From Thermoplasmata archaeon (GTDB lineage: Archaea; Thermoplasmatota; Thermoplasmata; Thermoplasmatales; ARK-15): DNA of 45,361 nt. The notes below the pieces were generated by a model, which was given only the letters and a program-made list of their open reading frames with translations, was not told where the DNA came from and made no database searches. Shown piece after piece: positions 7,370 through 28,701 of the stretch. The stretch is from contig JBAMMA010000003.1 in NCBI GenBank assembly GCA_039794005.1, positions 1 through 45,361 of the forward strand, read 5' to 3'. How positions within the stretch are numbered: the first letter of the stretch is position 1; each line of letters begins with the position of its first letter. The position numbers and the translations under genes are program-made.

Positions 7370-8020
7370 ATGCTTCAGAAGGTAAAACCTACCAGGATGG
7401 AACTTCTGCGATTGAAAAAAAGGATAACCATTGCAAGAAAGGGTCTGGATCTATTAAAATTGAAGAGGGCAGCATTGATAATTGAATTCATGAAATATGT
7501 TCATAAATCAAAGGATCTGAGAGAACAACTGGAAAAAATAACAAAAAAGGCATATGAAGATGTAAAAATAGCAGAAATATACCATGGAACCATAGGCATA
7601 GAAAGTGCAACGATGATGGTAAAGAAAATGGCAAAACTGAATATAAAGACAAAAAATGTCATGGGAATAAATCTTCCCATACTTGGAAGGGAAAGATTTG
7701 AAGATATCGTTAATACCAGATATAGATTAGTTGGATTTTCAGCAAAGATTGATCAAATAATAAACGATTTTGAAAAGTATCATAATCTGATATTAGAAAT
7801 TGCAGAGGTGGAAAATTCTATCAGAAAACTATTGCAAGAGATTGAGAAGACTAACAGGAGGTCCAATGCAATAGAAAAGATTCTGATACCGGAGTTAGAA
7901 AAACAGGCTTCATATTTAAAAATGAAATTTGAAGAGATGGAAAGGGATACTTTCGTCACGCTTAAGAAGATAAAAAGTAATTTGAGCAAGAGGGAAAATG
8001 CTGAAGCTATGGTTGATTAA
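7370..8020 (+). CDS. atpD: A-type ATP synthase subunit D
   Basis: PTRMEL, GLDLLKLKR, EIEKTNRRSNAIE, EEMERDTF. Confidence 0.96.
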   Translation: MLQKVKPTRMELLRLKKRITIARKGLDLLKLKRAALIIEFMKYVHKSKDLREQLEKITKKAYEDVKIAEIYHGTIGIESATMMVKKMAKLNIKTKNVMGINLPILGRERFEDIVNTRYRLVGFSAKIDQIINDFEKYHNLILEIAEVENSIRKLLQEIEKTNRRSNAIEKILIPELEKQASYLKMKFEEMERDTFVTLKKIKSNLSKRENAEAMVD

Positions 8021-21838: not shown

Positions 21839-22496
21839 AATATACATTATAGGTGTTGGTCCTGGCGATCCTGATTTTATTACTATTCATGGCAAAAATA
21901 TATTAAACAATGCCGATTGTGTTGCTGGTTTTAATTCTGCTATAAATGTTGTGGAAAAATATATCAGGGGACAAAAAATCATAATTAATTATAAAAATGA
22001 AACTGAAATGTTAAAATTTATCTCTGAGGAGGCAAGAAAAGGAATCAAGTGTGTTATTGTTTGTTACGGCGATCCAAATTTTTCCGATATTCAGTTTATT
22101 CAGAAAATAAAATCTTTTTATAATAATATTAAGATAATTCCCGGAATAAGTTCAATTCAAATTGCATTATCCAAATCTGGAATACCTTTTGAAGAATCTA
22201 TATTCATAACATTTCATAAAAGTGGTACACTAGAATATGAAAAGGAGGAATTGTTGAAATATGTCAGAGAAGGAAATAGAAATGTGATTTTATTACCAAG
22301 GCCATGGGATTTTATGCCAAAAGAAATTGCTGAATATCTCATTTTAAATGGAATATCGGAAAATATAGAAGTCATAATATATGAAAATCTCACCTTAAAG
22401 GATGAAAAAACATACAATATCTATTTAGGAGATCTAAGAATAATGGATAAAAGGTTTAGTGATTTAACAATTTTAATCATTAAAAGAAGAAATTAA
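21831..22496 (+). CDS. Second CbiE-like tetrapyrrole methyltransferase
   Basis: IIGVGPGDP, GDPNFSD, IPGISSIQ, TFHKSG, LPRPWDFMP, ENLTLKDE. Confidence 0.85.
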   Translation: MNEIYIIGVGPGDPDFITIHGKNILNNADCVAGFNSAINVVEKYIRGQKIIINYKNETEMLKFISEEARKGIKCVIVCYGDPNFSDIQFIQKIKSFYNNIKIIPGISSIQIALSKSGIPFEESIFITFHKSGTLEYEKEELLKYVREGNRNVILLPRPWDFMPKEIAEYLILNGISENIEVIIYENLTLKDEKTYNIYLGDLRIMDKRFSDLTILIIKRRN

Positions 22497-22509
22497 TAAT
22501 ATCAAAAAA

Positions 22510-24462
22510 TCAGGAATATCTAACAACCATCTCTTTTATGATATCCCCCACATCATCACATCTGTCCGTAATTTTTTCCATATTTTCCGCAATCTCCTTT
22601 ATTGTTAAAAATTTCTTGATATCTGTTTCCTTAATTAATTCTTTCAGATATGCATCCACTATATCATCCGTCATATTTTCAAGTCTGTGGACTTCATTAC
22701 ATATGTTTAAAATTTCTTCATATTCTCCAAGTTTAATTTTGAAAACGTTTTTAACGGCATTAGTGATCTCGCTCACGGATTTATTGTTTATTTCTGCTAA
22801 GGCAATTATATTGGGATTATTTTTTTCCAATCCATAAATGTATATTTTTTTACTTGTTGATTCAATTGCATCCATTATGTCATCCAGGGAAGAAACCAAA
22901 TAGAATATGTCATTCCTCTCGATTGGCATCCTTACCTTCCTGTTTAATTTTCTATATACTTCTCCTGAAATTTTATCATTTTCATGCTCTAATTCCTTTA
23001 TCAATTTGACATTCTCAATATTTTTTTCAGAATCTACAGATAATTCATACAATAATTTTGATGCTTTATTTAAGTTTTCAATCATTGTATATACTGGTTT
23101 CGAGAATTCTTTAAACACGCTTGATGATTCTTCCAATGTAAGATCTTTTGTTTCTTCACCAAATAATACTGTAAACAGTAAACCAAAGATTAAAAGTGCA
23201 GAAATTATCATTATCGTGTAATAAATATTCAAATAAGATTTCAGGATAGGTAAAATCAGCACACCTGTAATTGCTCCTAGTCTGGATATGGCAGTAGAAG
23301 AACCCTGTGCAGTGGCCCTCAATCTTGTTGGGAAAAGTTCCAGAGGAACTAACCATGTTGTAGTATTCGGTCCTCCATTTTGAGATATTTCAAACAATGC
23401 AAAAAATATTAACGTAAAAATGAAATTAACATTTATCAAAATGGAAATCAAAATAAGTGAAATTATCATCCCCAAAAATCCAAATATTTGAAGTTTTAAT
23501 CTTCCATATCTGTCTATTAAAAATATTGCCAGTATGAATCCTATAATTCCAAAGAAATAAGAGATTGAGGCTCCAAGTATTGAATACTTATCCGTAAAAC
23601 CCAGATTTTGCAATATTATTGGTTGAAATATGTTTATTCCATAAACACCTATATCCATGAAAAACCAGGGCAGCCATGAAAATAATGTCCTTCTTATGAA
23701 CAGTGGAGACAACATATCTTTGAATGAATAAATTTCCTCAGAATTATCCACATTTAAATCTCCTTCAGCTTCAACGTTCAACGTTTTCAATATTTTTATT
23801 GCCTCTTCATTTTTACCCTTAGAAACAAGCCATCTGGGTGATTCAGGCATCAATGATCTAAATATTATCACAACTATTGCTGGAAATATACCAGTTAACA
23901 AAATTAGCCTCCAGGTATCCCACCCTAATGGTTGTAAAGAATAAAGTATGTATCCAACGATAGATGCTGAAAATGCACCTATGCCCCAAAACATAAATGT
24001 TTTTGCAATCATTTGACCCCTAACATTTTTTGGTGAAAATTCACTAACATATGTAGAGCTTATCGGATAATCTGCGCCAATACCAAATCCTAAAAGAAAT
24101 CTAAAAACTATTAATTGTATTAAATTTTGAGAAAGGGCTGATAAAATTGCAAAAAGCACAAAAAATATTAGATCAATTAAATACATGAATTTCCTACCCA
24201 TTCTGTCTGTAAAATGGCCAAAAATCAGTGCACCAAAGAACATGCCTATCAATGCAGAGGATGCGAGTAATCCAGTATATAATCCCCTCATATTTGGAGG
24301 ATATTCATTTATCCATGGTGTTATGTATAAAAGTACGATACTTATAATAAAAAGATCGTATCCATCAAGAAATACACCTGCAGCAGATAATAAAAATACC
24401 TTTCTATGAAATGATGAATATTCCATATTATCTATTTTTTCCGTGATATTATTCAACATCAT
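22510..24462 (-). CDS. MFS phosphate:H+ symporter-like transporter (Pho84/PHT1 type) fused to a C-terminal DUF47/PhoU-like domain
   Basis: DGYDLF, GADYPISSTYVSE, WFFMD..VYG, GPNTTT...ELFPTRLR in about the first 450 aa; then LEHEND, PIERNDI..L...LDDIMD, LENMTD and EKITDRCDD. Confidence 0.88.
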   Translation of the reverse strand: MMLNNITEKIDNMEYSSFHRKVFLLSAAGVFLDGYDLFIISIVLLYITPWINEYPPNMRGLYTGLLASSALIGMFFGALIFGHFTDRMGRKFMYLIDLIFFVLFAILSALSQNLIQLIVFRFLLGFGIGADYPISSTYVSEFSPKNVRGQMIAKTFMFWGIGAFSASIVGYILYSLQPLGWDTWRLILLTGIFPAIVVIIFRSLMPESPRWLVSKGKNEEAIKILKTLNVEAEGDLNVDNSEEIYSFKDMLSPLFIRRTLFSWLPWFFMDIGVYGINIFQPIILQNLGFTDKYSILGASISYFFGIIGFILAIFLIDRYGRLKLQIFGFLGMIISLILISILINVNFIFTLIFFALFEISQNGGPNTTTWLVPLELFPTRLRATAQGSSTAISRLGAITGVLILPILKSYLNIYYTIMIISALLIFGLLFTVLFGEETKDLTLEESSSVFKEFSKPVYTMIENLNKASKLLYELSVDSEKNIENVKLIKELEHENDKISGEVYRKLNRKVRMPIERNDIFYLVSSLDDIMDAIESTSKKIYIYGLEKNNPNIIALAEINNKSVSEITNAVKNVFKIKLGEYEEILNICNEVHRLENMTDDIVDAYLKELIKETDIKKFLTIKEIAENMEKITDRCDDVGDIIKEMVVRYS

Positions 24463-24517
24463 AATAGTAAAATAATACAATTCATATAACTTTTTTTTAT
24501 AATCTCAGATGAATTGA

Positions 24518-24832
24518 ATGAAAAATAAGAAAAACATTTCAATAAAGATGTGGAAAGTTAATGGTGAATTTGTTTTGGCAGCATGCGATTCTGAATTATT
24601 GGGCAAGGAGTTTAAAGAGGGTGAACTAACATTAAGTGTTTATGAAAGTTTTTACCATGAAAGATATGTTGACAAGGAGGAATTTATATCATATCTGAAA
24701 AGTGCAACAATAATAAATCTCGTCGGTAAGAGAGTCATAAATATTGCAATTGAAGAAGGTATCGTGGATAAAAATAATATATTGTATATAAATAAAATAC
24801 CCCATGCACAGGCTGTACTTATGTTAAAATAA
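24518..24832 (+). CDS. DUF424 family protein
   Basis: LAACDSELLGK, FY, ATIINLVG, IPHAQ. Confidence 0.9.
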   Translation: MKNKKNISIKMWKVNGEFVLAACDSELLGKEFKEGELTLSVYESFYHERYVDKEEFISYLKSATIINLVGKRVINIAIEEGIVDKNNILYINKIPHAQAVLMLK

Positions 24833-26119: not shown

Positions 26120-26899
26120 ATGTTAGATGATTTAAAAAAGATGGCATTCAATGTAAAAAAGGTAGTTGAAGGATATTTGGAAAATAATTTTGAAAGTGCC
26201 GGAGAATTCGTAAAAATCGGTGAAGATGGAACACCTACAACAAATATTGACATTATTGCAGAAAATGAAGTTATTGAATATATAAAAGACAAAGATCTCC
26301 CTGTAAATTTATTAAGTGAAGAATATGGATTTATGAATAGAAATTATGAAAGAACATTAATATTGGACCCCATTGATGGATCATTTAATGCAGAAAATAA
26401 TATCCCTGTATTTTCAATATCTTTAGCGGTAGCAAAGGAAGGCCTTAACGATCTGGAATATGCCTTAATATTGAATATTACAAACGGGAAATATTATTGG
26501 GCAGAGAAGGGAAAAGGGGCCTATTTTATGGAAAATAGATTGCCTAGGATAAATTCAAATAAAGTAGTGAGTGCAATAAGACTGGGCAAAGAATCGGATG
26601 AAAAGGTATTTGAAATAATAAAAAATAGTAATAAGGTGAGATCATTGGGATGCAGTTCTTTAGAAATGGCCATGGTTGCGGAAGGTTCAATTTCATTCTT
26701 CTTGTATTATAAAAAAAATTATGGAATTTTGAGGATAACAGACATAGCTGCGTCAGTTTTAATATTGCGTGAAGCTGGTGGCCAAGTGTATGATCCGGAT
26801 ACTATGGAATTATTGAACATGAAATTAGATGTAAAAGAAAGGAAAAATGTTGTTGCATCACTAGATAGAAATATAATTAAAAGGTTGTGGGGGAAATAA
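26120..26899 (+). CDS. IMPase/FBPase-superfamily phosphatase (probable NADP(H) phosphatase)
   Basis: GEDGTPT, SEE, LDPIDGS, RSLG, RITDIAA; adjacent to NAD kinase. Confidence 0.85.
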   Translation: MLDDLKKMAFNVKKVVEGYLENNFESAGEFVKIGEDGTPTTNIDIIAENEVIEYIKDKDLPVNLLSEEYGFMNRNYERTLILDPIDGSFNAENNIPVFSISLAVAKEGLNDLEYALILNITNGKYYWAEKGKGAYFMENRLPRINSNKVVSAIRLGKESDEKVFEIIKNSNKVRSLGCSSLEMAMVAEGSISFFLYYKKNYGILRITDIAASVLILREAGGQVYDPDTMELLNMKLDVKERKNVVASLDRNIIKRLWGK

Positions 26900-26900
26900 T

Positions 26901-27707
26901 ATGAAAATAGGATTGGTGGCCAATAAGGATTTATCATTGGCATTAAAAGTTGCAAAAGAAGTATATAATTACTTATTAGAATCAAATCAAGAGATCATGG
27001 TGGAGGAATCATTATCAAAAATATTCAAAACAAATGGTGTTAAGATAGAAGATATGGATGTTGATATAATAATAACTGTGGGTGGAGATGGAACTGTTTT
27101 GCATACACTTATGAAAACTAATAAACCTATATTTTCAATAAATGCTGGGAGGCTTGGATTTTTAACGGAAATCCTGCCGGTTGATTTAGAATATTATTTG
27201 AATAAATTGATAAATAAAGAATACTTTATTGAGGACAGGAGAAAGTTAAAAGTTTTATTGAATGATGAAAGATTGCCAGATTGTACAAATGAAGTTGTTA
27301 TACATACCAATGAAATTTCAAAAATGAGAAGTTATGCCATATATATAGATAATGAATTAATGGATGAGGCCAGGGCCGATGGCATAATTGTATCTACAGC
27401 CACAGGATCTACATCATATTCCTTGAGCGTAGGTGGGCCCATAGTTGATCCAAGAATTAGCAGTATGATAATAAGTTTCATAGCTCCATTTAAACTTGCA
27501 GCTAGACCTCATGTAGTTCCAGGTAAATCAAAAATAGAAATACACATGCTCGATAAAAAGAAGAAAAGTTTGATAGTTCTTGACGGTCAGGTAAGGAAAA
27601 ACATAATCCCATCAGATATTGTACAAATTACAGAAAGTGAAAATACGGCAAAGTTTGTGAAATTTTCAAATAAATTTTATGAAAAATTGAGGGAAAAGAT
27701 GTTATGA
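26901..27707 (+). CDS. nadK: NAD(+) kinase
   Basis: GGDGTVL, GRLGFL, NE, ADGIIVSTATGSTSYSLSVGGP. Confidence 0.95.
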   Translation: MKIGLVANKDLSLALKVAKEVYNYLLESNQEIMVEESLSKIFKTNGVKIEDMDVDIIITVGGDGTVLHTLMKTNKPIFSINAGRLGFLTEILPVDLEYYLNKLINKEYFIEDRRKLKVLLNDERLPDCTNEVVIHTNEISKMRSYAIYIDNELMDEARADGIIVSTATGSTSYSLSVGGPIVDPRISSMIISFIAPFKLAARPHVVPGKSKIEIHMLDKKKKSLIVLDGQVRKNIIPSDIVQITESENTAKFVKFSNKFYEKLREKML

Positions 27708-28066
27708 ATTACAGAATAAAGAGAAAGGTCTTAGAACTTATAATGGAGAGTTCTAAAGATAGCATGCCAAATGAATTTGCAGCATTTTTGAGAGCTAGAA
27801 ATGGTATAATATATGAAATAGTAATGATACCAACAATATCTGGGAGAAGATCCGCAACTTATATGCTTTATATGAAGCCAATAGATTTTTCTATTGTTGG
27901 AACAGTTCATTCACATCCATCTGGAATTCTAATACCAAGTGAGGAAGATCTGCATTTATTTTCATTGACAGGTGAAATACATCTAATTGTAGGTTATCCA
28001 TTCAATTTGGAAAATTTTAGGGCCTTTAACAGGAATGGTAAACCTATTGAGGTTGAAATAATATGA
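27704..28066 (+). CDS. JAMM/MPN+ metalloprotease
   Basis: PNE...HSHPSG...PSEED catalytic motif. Confidence 0.92.
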   Translation: MNYRIKRKVLELIMESSKDSMPNEFAAFLRARNGIIYEIVMIPTISGRRSATYMLYMKPIDFSIVGTVHSHPSGILIPSEEDLHLFSLTGEIHLIVGYPFNLENFRAFNRNGKPIEVEII

Positions 28067-28701
28067 AAATCATAGATTCAAATAAATACGATATAATTTA
28101 TACCGAGAAAGCTGTTTTAATAGATGTTTTTAGGGCTACAACATCCATAGTAGTTATTCTGAGCAATGGTGCAGAAAAAATTATTCCCTTTCCGAATGAA
28201 GAATCTGCCAGGGAGTTTTATAAAAAAAATAGAGATATGATATTGGTTGGAGAAAGAAATGGCTACAAAATACCAGATTTTCATTTTGGAAATACACCTT
28301 ATTTATTGAGCAAGCATGATTTTCATGGGAAAAGCGTTATTTTTGTTTCAACCAATGGAACAAGGGTATTAAACAAAATCAAATCGAATCATGTTTATTT
28401 TGCTTCATTTCTGAATGCATCCTCAATTTTAAAAGTTCTGGATGAAAAAACGGATTTTATTTGTGCAAATAGATTAAATCTATTGTCGATTGAAGATTTT
28501 ATGTTAGCAGCCTATTTAAAAGCTAAGAAATTGAATATAAAGATTGATTACAATAGAATAAAAGATATAATATTGAAATCAAAGAGTGCCGATCGTGTGA
28601 GGAGCTTGAATGCAGAAGAAGATATCTATTTTTCATTAAATCTTGATTTATATGATATAATTCCATATTATGTTAATGGAGAAATAAAAGCATTAAAATA
28701 G
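28063..28701 (+). CDS. comB: 2-phosphosulfolactate phosphatase (ComB family)
   Basis: IDVFRATTSI, GERNG, FGNTP, STNGT, SIED. Confidence 0.9.
   Translation: MKIIDSNKYDIIYTEKAVLIDVFRATTSIVVILSNGAEKIIPFPNEESAREFYKKNRDMILVGERNGYKIPDFHFGNTPYLLSKHDFHGKSVIFVSTNGTRVLNKIKSNHVYFASFLNASSILKVLDEKTDFICANRLNLLSIEDFMLAAYLKAKKLNIKIDYNRIKDIILKSKSADRVRSLNAEEDIYFSLNLDLYDIIPYYVNGEIKALK

Follow-up and report, generated by a model that had tools for sequence, protein, structure and literature searches.

Architecture of the fused gene

The window analysed in this study, a stretch of 45,361 nucleotides from a Thermoplasmata archaeon (contig JBAMMA010000003.1 of assembly GCA_039794005.1), carries on its minus strand a gene that joins a major facilitator superfamily (MFS) carrier to a DUF47/PhoU_div domain within one polypeptide. 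The coding sequence extends over positions 22510–24462 and encodes 650 amino acids from the ATG at 24462, followed by a TGA stop codon at 22510–22512. The carrier domain occupies residues 1–444 (23131–24462, minus strand), and the DUF47 domain occupies residues 445–650 (22513–23130, minus strand). An initial annotation of the window had described one continuous frame of about 650 residues, and the frame is indeed unbroken over 22510–24480, yielding 656 residues when read from an upstream TTG at 24480. In DNA of about 30% G+C, an open frame of 1.95 kb lies far above chance. All the motifs named in that annotation are present, namely DGYD (residue 33), GADYP (129), WFFMDIGVYG (266), GPNTTT (364), and the end motif ETKDLTLEE (437) in the carrier, and LEHEND (491), LDDIMD (526), LENMTD (594), and TDRCDD (632) in the DUF47 domain. 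Profile searches likewise place both domains on a single chain. Only four Pfam families match the protein at E-values up to 0.01, and three exceed their cut-offs: Sugar_tr (PF00083) scores 248.6 bits against a cut-off of 22.3 (1.6e-73, residues 31–456 in the 656-residue numbering), MFS_1 scores 132.1 bits against 33.4, and PhoU_div (PF01865) scores 74.8 bits against 24.4 (8.1e-21, residues 453–653 in the same numbering).

An AlphaFold2 model built on 35 fused sequences (mean predicted local distance difference test score, pLDDT, of 86.4; predicted template modelling score of 0.71) comprises 12 membrane helices in two halves of six, then a coil of 10 residues, and finally six long helices packed as a bundle, with cytoplasmic helices between the sixth and seventh transmembrane helices of the carrier. 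Foldseek confirmed the MFS fold and placed the fungal phosphate transporter PiPT (7sp5_A, 7.8e-16) among its top hits. The TM-score, normalized by target length, is 0.80 to PiPT, XylE, and GLUT3, and the ranking fails to separate phosphate carriers from sugar or SV2 carriers. Sequence comparison with solved structures retrieved rice PHT1;11 as the best match (5.1e-52), followed by a bacterial glucose carrier (1.3e-41) and PiPT (8.2e-41).

In PiPT, the substrate pocket is described as comprising Y150, F174, Q177, W320, D324, Y328, N431, and K459, and the proton path as comprising D45, D48, E108, R139, and D149 (PMC6761603). HMMER alignments assign Y132, F156, W159, W266, D270, Y274, N366, and R394 as the pocket equivalents in the window's protein, and D33, D36, D97, R121, and D131 as those of the proton path. 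The window's protein thus retains 11 of the 13 residues, counting D97, where aspartate stands in place of the glutamate E108. In the 35-row alignment of fused proteins, D33, D36, R121, and D131 of the proton path and Y132, F156, W266, D270, Y274, and N366 of the pocket are invariant. The position aligned with E108 varies among D, E, and T. The kinship with Pho84 and PHT1 proposed in the initial annotation is supported by these matches, and the retained residues suggest that phosphate is the likely substrate of the window's carrier.

The DUF47 half was located by a whole-genome scan at 22522–23124, in agreement with the previously assigned region at about 22510–23125. The domain is complete, as annotated: the PhoU_div alignment covers profile positions 7–213 of 214, and the solved DUF47 protein 3L39 (2.3e-21) aligns end to end, through the last residue. 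The TIGR00153 score, 48.8 bits, is below the cut-off of 104.3. The predicted helices comprise residues 445–476, 478–509, 513–543, 550–571, 582–609, and 615–649, together with a short helix at 573–578; these six long helices and one short helix can be read in the model as two three-helix bundles. Paired E/DxxxD motifs are a hallmark of the PhoU family, and the domain contains four of them (E492–D496, D527–D531, E595–D599, and D633–D637) as well as D640. Among 136 full-length fused proteins, E492, H493, D496, D531, E595, D599, D633, and D637 are invariant, and D527, N596, and D640 are each found in 135.

A hidden Markov model (HMM) of the fused domain matches ten stand-alone DUF47 genes in other genomes within the class, at 1e-55 to 1e-66. 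In eight of the ten cases, a PHO4/PiT gene lies directly downstream, and these are classical PitR–PitA pairs. These scores indicate a close relationship between the fused domain and the PitR-type proteins encoded separately beside PiT genes. In a tree of the DUF47 domain (47 rows, 199 columns), the stand-alone domains nest among the fused ones, with support too weak for the tree to be usable in counting fusion events. When longer proteins were searched with the DUF47 part, only four close kin emerged, a number that says nothing on other architectures.

The junction comprises residues 435–448 (ETKDLTLEESSS; 23119–23160, minus strand) and leads from the carrier end motif into the first DUF47 helix. 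In the model, residues 435–444 form a coil, and the pLDDT falls below 50 at residues 445–448. Among the 136 full-length fused proteins, E437 is present in 135, L443 in 136, and S447 in 135. The spacing between E437 and F453 is 16 in 114 proteins and 22 in the other 22, and that between E437 and E492 is exactly 55 in all 61 proteins with the pocket tryptophan seen at W159. This constraint on the junction length and on the DUF47 motifs supports a working fusion. The alternative is that two adjacent genes were joined by a sequencing or assembly error. Positions 23100–23160, the region where the annotation had called for read coverage, are crossed without a gap by contigs of four public runs; these represent three samples and two studies, carry the label hot-springs metagenome throughout, and include one run that is probably the source of this genome. 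A relative approximately 93–94% identical spans 22300–24694 and differs only by substitutions across the whole gene; its one gap, a deletion of eight bases at 22496, falls beyond the gene. In the DUF47 part, 28 of the 32 differences listed between this relative and the window within 22576–23101 fall at third codon positions. A comparison of 40 relatives of the window's genome showed a single frame in every genome of its own family (f1; 15 genomes) and of family f3 (eight genomes). Conservation extends to the junction residues, and of the 120 best homologues listed by a word-indexed search, 118 contain PF00083 together with PF01865. In run X2, one contig (depth approximately 8.6) is missing a base at 24052, because of either a disrupted gene copy in some strain or faulty assembly; this could be counted in favour of an artefact, though the site lies in the carrier-coding part, away from the junction. 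The artefact explanation is refuted by these observations, and we give it practically no credence.

Distribution and genomic setting

The fusion occurs in 143 retrieved protein clusters, and all the named ones are archaeal. The taxa recorded for the homologues are Thermoplasmata/Thermoplasmatales, Thaumarchaeota/Nitrososphaerota, and Thermoprotei, in addition to entries named simply "archaeon". The fused proteins bear automatic database names such as "MFS transporter" and, in JGI records, [quoted passage not shown] or "predicted phosphate transport protein (TIGR00153 family)". In an exhaustive search of 1.84 billion cluster representatives, nine of the best 150 matches are fused, and the ESM Atlas contains two fused clusters with 64 and 145 members, all archaeal. 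Among the 80 loci kept from named genomes, 13 carry the fused gene; they belong to Thermoplasmatota (including an Aciduliprofundum metagenome-assembled genome and "I-plasma"), Thaumarchaeota/Nitrososphaerota, Micrarchaeota, Marsarchaeota, and one unassigned archaeon. A further locus, L094, was rejected as a fusion: a match to residues 21–617 had been reported, and the gene is an unfused carrier of 424 residues. The sequence records come from hot springs, and relatives were recovered from acid mine drainage.

In addition to its occurrence throughout f1 and f3, the fused form was sought with the window query in families f2, f4, f5, f6, and f7 of the same 40 relatives and was not found there. A sample of 401 genomes of the class yielded, among the 150 matches listed, at least 52 DUF47 matches within frames of at least 650 residues in 51 genomes (the count is 50 without genome G129). 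Eight such long frames were inspected. Seven encode a carrier and a DUF47 domain, and the eighth, locus L024, was discarded because it contains a stand-alone DUF47 gene within a long open frame. The gene in the window is therefore neither rare nor odd; it belongs to a widespread archaeal family that is already present in the databases under automatic names, with both domains marked automatically.

The 143 fused proteins fall into two pocket types, in addition to five fragments. In 62 proteins, tryptophan and arginine occupy the positions of Q177 and K459 (W/R type), as in the window, and 76 proteins have the canonical glutamine and lysine (Q/K type). Only families f1 and f3 contain the W/R type, and the fused proteins of four other families in the class are all canonical. 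The Q/K-type fused lineages retain all 13 PiPT residues. A FastTree analysis of 172 carrier domains recovered a W/R clade (support 99) as the sister of a Nitrososphaerota fused clade (joint support 97), with eight further fused proteins scattered among unfused canonical carriers that include the genome's own paralogue. Similarly, a mixture-model tree computed with IQ-TREE from 64 rows united 13 unfused and six fused proteins in a canonical clade with support 100. For the whole family, the starred branches of the FastTree and IQ-TREE trees require the fusion to have been gained or lost at least four times.

The unfused relatives in named genomes include many bacteria. Mostly from Bacillaceae, these carriers (L045, L048–L051, L062, L071, L072, and others) keep the proton-path residues. 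Their pocket shows F174 replaced by G or A, Q177 by W, D324 by A, N431 by G, and K459 by R, giving the signature DDDRDY[G/A]WW[A/D]YGR. Carriers of this kind constitute a large PHS-derived family that probably left phosphate for another substrate. Separately, several carriers with a canonical pocket are fused to signalling modules, namely GAF-GGDEF (P0209 and P0226), the signalling domain of methyl-accepting chemotaxis proteins (MCP; P0258), and GAF/PAS-GGDEF-EAL (P0240 and P0253). These five proteins fall in the canonical PHS clade of the FastTree analysis, and they look like sensors of the phosphate-carrier type that feed cyclic di-GMP (c-di-GMP) or chemotaxis signalling.

The genome of the window comprises 1.10 Mb in 20 contigs and is 87% complete. 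It also encodes an unfused canonical PHS-type carrier of 466 residues, which has all 13 PiPT residues. This gene is divergent from that of a 328-residue protein with an AbrB-like (MazE_antitoxin) N-terminus and a PhoU domain (C1:74734–77245 for the pair; L019, 2735–5246), which may act as a transcription regulator of the canonical carrier. The divergent pair is found in eight of the nine f1 genomes that list the paralogue and in none of the seven f3 genomes listed. Both PHS-type carriers in f1 thus have a companion of the PhoU superfamily, since one is encoded by a neighbouring gene and the other is fused. The only PiT-like gene (contig C12; L003, 1477–2376) encodes 299 residues with a weak PHO4 score of 84 bits and adjoins a gene for an FAD-dependent oxidoreductase; no DUF47 gene lies beside it, and the separate-gene arrangement of PitR is therefore absent from this locus. 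The only stand-alone DUF47 protein of the genome (contig C18; L002, 778–2145) is very divergent, matching the HMM of the fused domain at 3.7e-12, and its gene abuts one for a glycerophosphodiester phosphodiesterase. None of PstB, PstC, and PstS was found above its cut-off in this 87%-complete genome.

In the window, two tetrapyrrole methylase genes flank the fused gene on one side; on its other side lie genes for a DUF424 protein, a peroxiredoxin, and an Lrp-type regulator. A conserved cluster encoding Inositol_P, NAD kinase, Prok-JAB, and 2-phosphosulfolactate phosphatase (ComB) proteins is located at 26120–28701 of the window, at 7981–10552 of L028, and at 7988–10579 of L030. In two other genera of f1, the fused gene lies directly upstream of this cluster on the same strand. 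In the window, the carrier gene has the opposite orientation and is 1.6 kb distant from the cluster, with the DUF424, peroxiredoxin, and Lrp/AsnC genes in between. At all three Thaumarchaeota/Nitrososphaerota loci, the fused gene is immediately preceded by a DUF84 (NTPase_I-T) gene in the same orientation (L036, 3341–3955, overlapping the fused gene; L040, 5382–5909; L054, 3056–3688). At L040, from Thaumarchaeota, a PHO4 gene and a stand-alone PhoU_div gene, which constitute a PiT and PitR pair, follow directly downstream of the fused gene in convergent orientation.

The ATG at 24462 is the likelier start codon. Full-length relatives begin near this position, and the spacing of two TATA-like elements appears to point the same way, the TTG at 24480 lying close to both. 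The first element, an A/T-rich stretch at 24491–24502 (TTATAAAAAAAA), ends 10 nt before this TTG. The second, the hexamer TTATAT at 24484–24489, lies 21 nt 5' of the ATG, and the TTG starts 3 nt after it. The hexamer belongs to the 12-mer TTATATGAATTG at 24478–24489, whose final three letters form the alternative TTG. Together, the two stretches constitute a promoter-like region at 24478–24502 on the minus strand, and a sister genome has TTATATGAAATG at the matching position. The distance from the 12-mer to the ATG is 15 nt for the fused gene and 13 nt for the canonical paralogue (copy at C1:76148–76159), and the 12-mer occurs six times in the genome, compared with no occurrence of the reversed control. 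It was considered as a regulon motif and rejected, because the other four copies are not comparably placed and the sister genome has it, with one change, only before the fused gene. We read TTATATGAATTG as a TATA box or as a chance occurrence. Directly after the stop codon, a run of six T residues (22504–22509, minus strand) may serve as an archaeal terminator.

Transport, regulation, and alternative explanations

From these observations, we infer a substrate, a direction of transport, a sensed ligand, and a gating contact for the fused protein. On balance, it is probably a proton-coupled phosphate carrier of the Pho84/PHT1/PiPT lineage that bears a PitR-type DUF47 domain as a regulator in cis. 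In favour of this reading count the kinship of both halves, the full canonical pocket of the Q/K-type fused lineages, the constrained junction and motifs, and the genome setting, with no Pst system detected, a PhoU-domain neighbour for the canonical paralogue, and the PiT and PitR pair at L040. The carrier would move inorganic phosphate, or a closely similar oxyanion, together with protons across the membrane of this hot-spring archaeon. Through its four E/DxxxD motifs, the DUF47 domain would sense a cytoplasmic signal, such as the phosphate or metal-phosphate state, and would restrain transport by acting on its own carrier from the cytoplasmic side. Bacteria offer three parallels to such a role, since Pst has PhoU, PitA has PitR, and NptA has its PhoU domain. 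Three PhoU-like clades have been described, each working with one importer family, and NptA's PhoU domain acts in cis (PMC13170248). Moreover, Escherichia coli PhoU is reported to bind manganese and magnesium and to change its shape (PMC12301784, citing Gardner 2014). The self-regulation and metal-phosphate sensing that the initial annotation attributed to the DUF47 domain may be proposed by analogy with these systems. In acidic hot springs, the steep proton gradient could make an unregulated H+/phosphate symporter dangerous and thereby favour a built-in brake.

Several findings weigh against this reading. Two of the 13 PiPT residues are exchanged in the pocket itself, Q177 for tryptophan (W159) and K459 for arginine (R394). 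The W/R and Q/K types are separated by 14 alignment columns, all in the carrier; four of these, columns 386, 389, 393, and 394 (the last being the K459 position), lie in the stretch aligned with helix 11 of PiPT. The score on TIGR00887, the model for phosphate:H+ symporters, is 209.2 bits and falls far below the cut-off of 610.3, and the aromatic-acid model TIGR00895 scores no lower (216 bits, also far below its cut-off of 419). A canonical unfused paralogue is present in all five W/R-type genomes examined, and the fused copy may thus act otherwise. In the free IQ-TREE search, the W/R clade stands beside unfused W/R carriers (support 88), and the unfused W/R carriers near it have lost N431 and often D324. 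The next-neighbour clusters of the query in the ESM Atlas carry the automatic names "YaaU" and "NaiP family". Around the fused gene, no conserved phosphate genes or phosphate operon were found in f1 and f3. As for regulation, a two-hybrid study of Staphylococcus aureus is described as detecting no contact between PitR and PitA (PMC11705898), so that direct action of DUF47 proteins on carriers is at most a hypothesis.

Taken together, the pocket data could indicate that, with the architecture unchanged, the f1/f3 carrier was retuned by the Q177 and K459 exchanges and a remodelled helix 11 to another small anion or phosphorylated compound, such as an organophosphate, arsenate, pyrophosphate, or a vitamin-like acid. 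Phosphate import would then fall to the canonical paralogue, and the DUF47 domain would still couple the activity of the fused carrier to phosphate status. The 14 clade-specific columns with their two pocket positions, the coexisting paralogue, the free tree, and the level scores on the two TIGR models all favour such a change, as does the signature of the unfused Bacillaceae carriers. Nevertheless, the fused W/R clade retains F174, D324, Y328, and N431, which are lost in the unfused carriers, and the exchange of lysine for arginine preserves the positive charge. The TIGR00887 cut-off appears to exclude archaeal members generally, because neither the canonical paralogue, at 319 bits, nor the best fused relative, at 444 bits, reaches it; some fused proteins, at 331–444 bits, equal or surpass that paralogue on this model. 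In the approximately unbiased (AU) test, a tree that unites the W/R clade with the Nitrososphaerota fused clade surpasses the free tree by 5.66 log-likelihood units (p-AU 0.594). One fused ancestor for the two clades is therefore at least as good an account, and the altered pocket appears, most simply, to have arisen inside an already fused lineage of the phosphate type. Phosphate carrier paralogues of differing affinity are also common. We thus regard a different substrate as unlikely, while taking it seriously. Of the annotation's phosphate:H+ carrier, the kinship stands, and its substrate has to be qualified by the derived pocket and the low TIGR00887 score.

Two further explanations retain the phosphate ligand and alter the function. 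The protein could be mainly a sensor, or transceptor, in which the carrier reports external or translocated phosphate and the DUF47 domain signals to another partner, such as the AbrB-PhoU protein encoded in the same genome, with no self-gating. Canonical PHS-type carriers fused to GAF-GGDEF, MCP, and GAF/PAS-GGDEF-EAL outputs would fit this function, yeast Pho84 has been described as a transceptor (PMC5159500), and bacterial PitR is reported to control the PhoPR response (PMC13170248). On the other hand, all the proton-path residues are kept, which argues for real transport; the DUF47 domain has no known output activity and no identified partner, and the fused gene (contig C3) is unlinked to the AbrB-PhoU gene (contig C1). 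We consider a mainly signalling function improbable. Alternatively, the carrier might work mainly outward and release phosphate or metal-phosphate derived from polyphosphate under metal stress, being opened by the metal-binding motifs of the DUF47 domain as metal-phosphate accumulates in the cytoplasm. The hot-spring records and the relatives from acid mine drainage would suit this function, as would metal binding by E. coli PhoU (PMC12301784). In Metallosphaera sedula, Pho84-like genes are reported to rise after copper shock, and a role in efflux was put forward (PMC5859850, PMC5328820); this role is itself a proposal in these papers, whose accessible texts contain no mention of PhoU or DUF47. 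Export appears very improbable, slightly more so than signalling.

A broader scheme, in which PHS-type MFS proteins form a general phosphate transceptor scaffold of prokaryotes, can be advanced tentatively. Archaea would have wired this scaffold in cis to a PitR-like DUF47 domain that docks on the cytoplasmic gate, and bacteria to c-di-GMP and chemotaxis outputs. In the window's thermoacidophile lineage, the Q177W and K459R exchanges would then mark a shift to a second role beside the canonical paralogue, either high-capacity uptake or the release of metal-phosphate. If so, the fused protein would be the first instance of a PhoU-superfamily regulator and an MFS-type transporter in one polypeptide, and DUF47 proteins would be shown to act by direct contact with a carrier.

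Relation to known systems and implications

The closest known relatives of the carrier half are the PHS symporters (TC 2.A.1.9), including Pho84, PiPT, and PHT1, which share its fold, provide the best matches among solved structures, and have 11 of the 13 residues in common with it. The fused protein differs from them in the two pocket exchanges, a shorter central loop, a TIGR00887 score far below the cut-off, the C-terminal DUF47 domain, and its archaeal host. Similar to the DUF47 half, PitR belongs to the same domain family, and stand-alone members beside PiT genes in the class are close kin; in S. aureus, PitR is reported to regulate phosphate homeostasis together with its carrier (PMC13170248). 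Unlike PitR, the domain is here fused, and its partner is an MFS protein rather than a PiT carrier. The NptA-type Na+/phosphate carriers resemble the fused protein in having a PhoU-superfamily regulator in cis at the cytoplasmic end (PMC13170248). They differ in combining the Na_Pi_cotrans fold with a PF01895 regulator, whereas the regulator here is of the PF01865 family; neither Na_Pi_cotrans nor PF01895 matched the protein in the Pfam search (E-values up to 0.01). E. coli YjbB is a further carrier with a C-terminal PhoU domain.

In plants, PHT5/VPT1 proteins are vacuolar SPX-MFS phosphate transporters whose N-terminal SPX domain reads inositol pyrophosphates. The initial annotation proposed the fused protein as an archaeal analogue of these transporters. 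The analogy extends to the logic, in that an MFS phosphate carrier is combined with a cytoplasmic sensor of phosphate status. The origins are independent, and no SPX domain was matched in the protein by the same Pfam search. The "Pho84-like" carriers of Sulfolobales, such as Msed_0846 of Metallosphaera sedula, were compared by description: they are archaeal MFS proteins annotated as phosphate:H+ symporters (PMC5859850, PMC5328820), a kind that the genome's unfused paralogue resembles, and unlike the fused protein they come with no reference to PhoU or DUF47 in the accessible parts of these sources.

The initial annotation regarded this architecture as one not known to be characterized. In agreement, full-text literature searches, with subscription journals outside their scope, returned no publication describing an MFS-DUF47 fusion, and a 2026 study of PhoU-like clades, as far as its accessible text extends, deals with bacterial, single-domain PhoU_div proteins only (PMC13170248). 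The fusion is thus an uncharacterized and widespread architecture rather than a new principle. It would add a fourth pairing of a transporter with a PhoU-like protein beside Pst-PhoU, PitA-PitR, and NptA-PhoU, with the fusion conserved across several archaeal phyla. As a natural fusion, it also provides a "Rosetta stone" argument for physical contact between the two halves, to be set against the negative two-hybrid result reported for PitR and PitA (PMC11705898). The fused protein would offer a single-chain object for studying this contact, the ligand of the DUF47 domain, and the gating of phosphate carriers. It may further bear on how acidophilic archaea, which maintain a steep proton gradient, avoid phosphate overload; the 87%-complete genome of the window yielded no Pst system.

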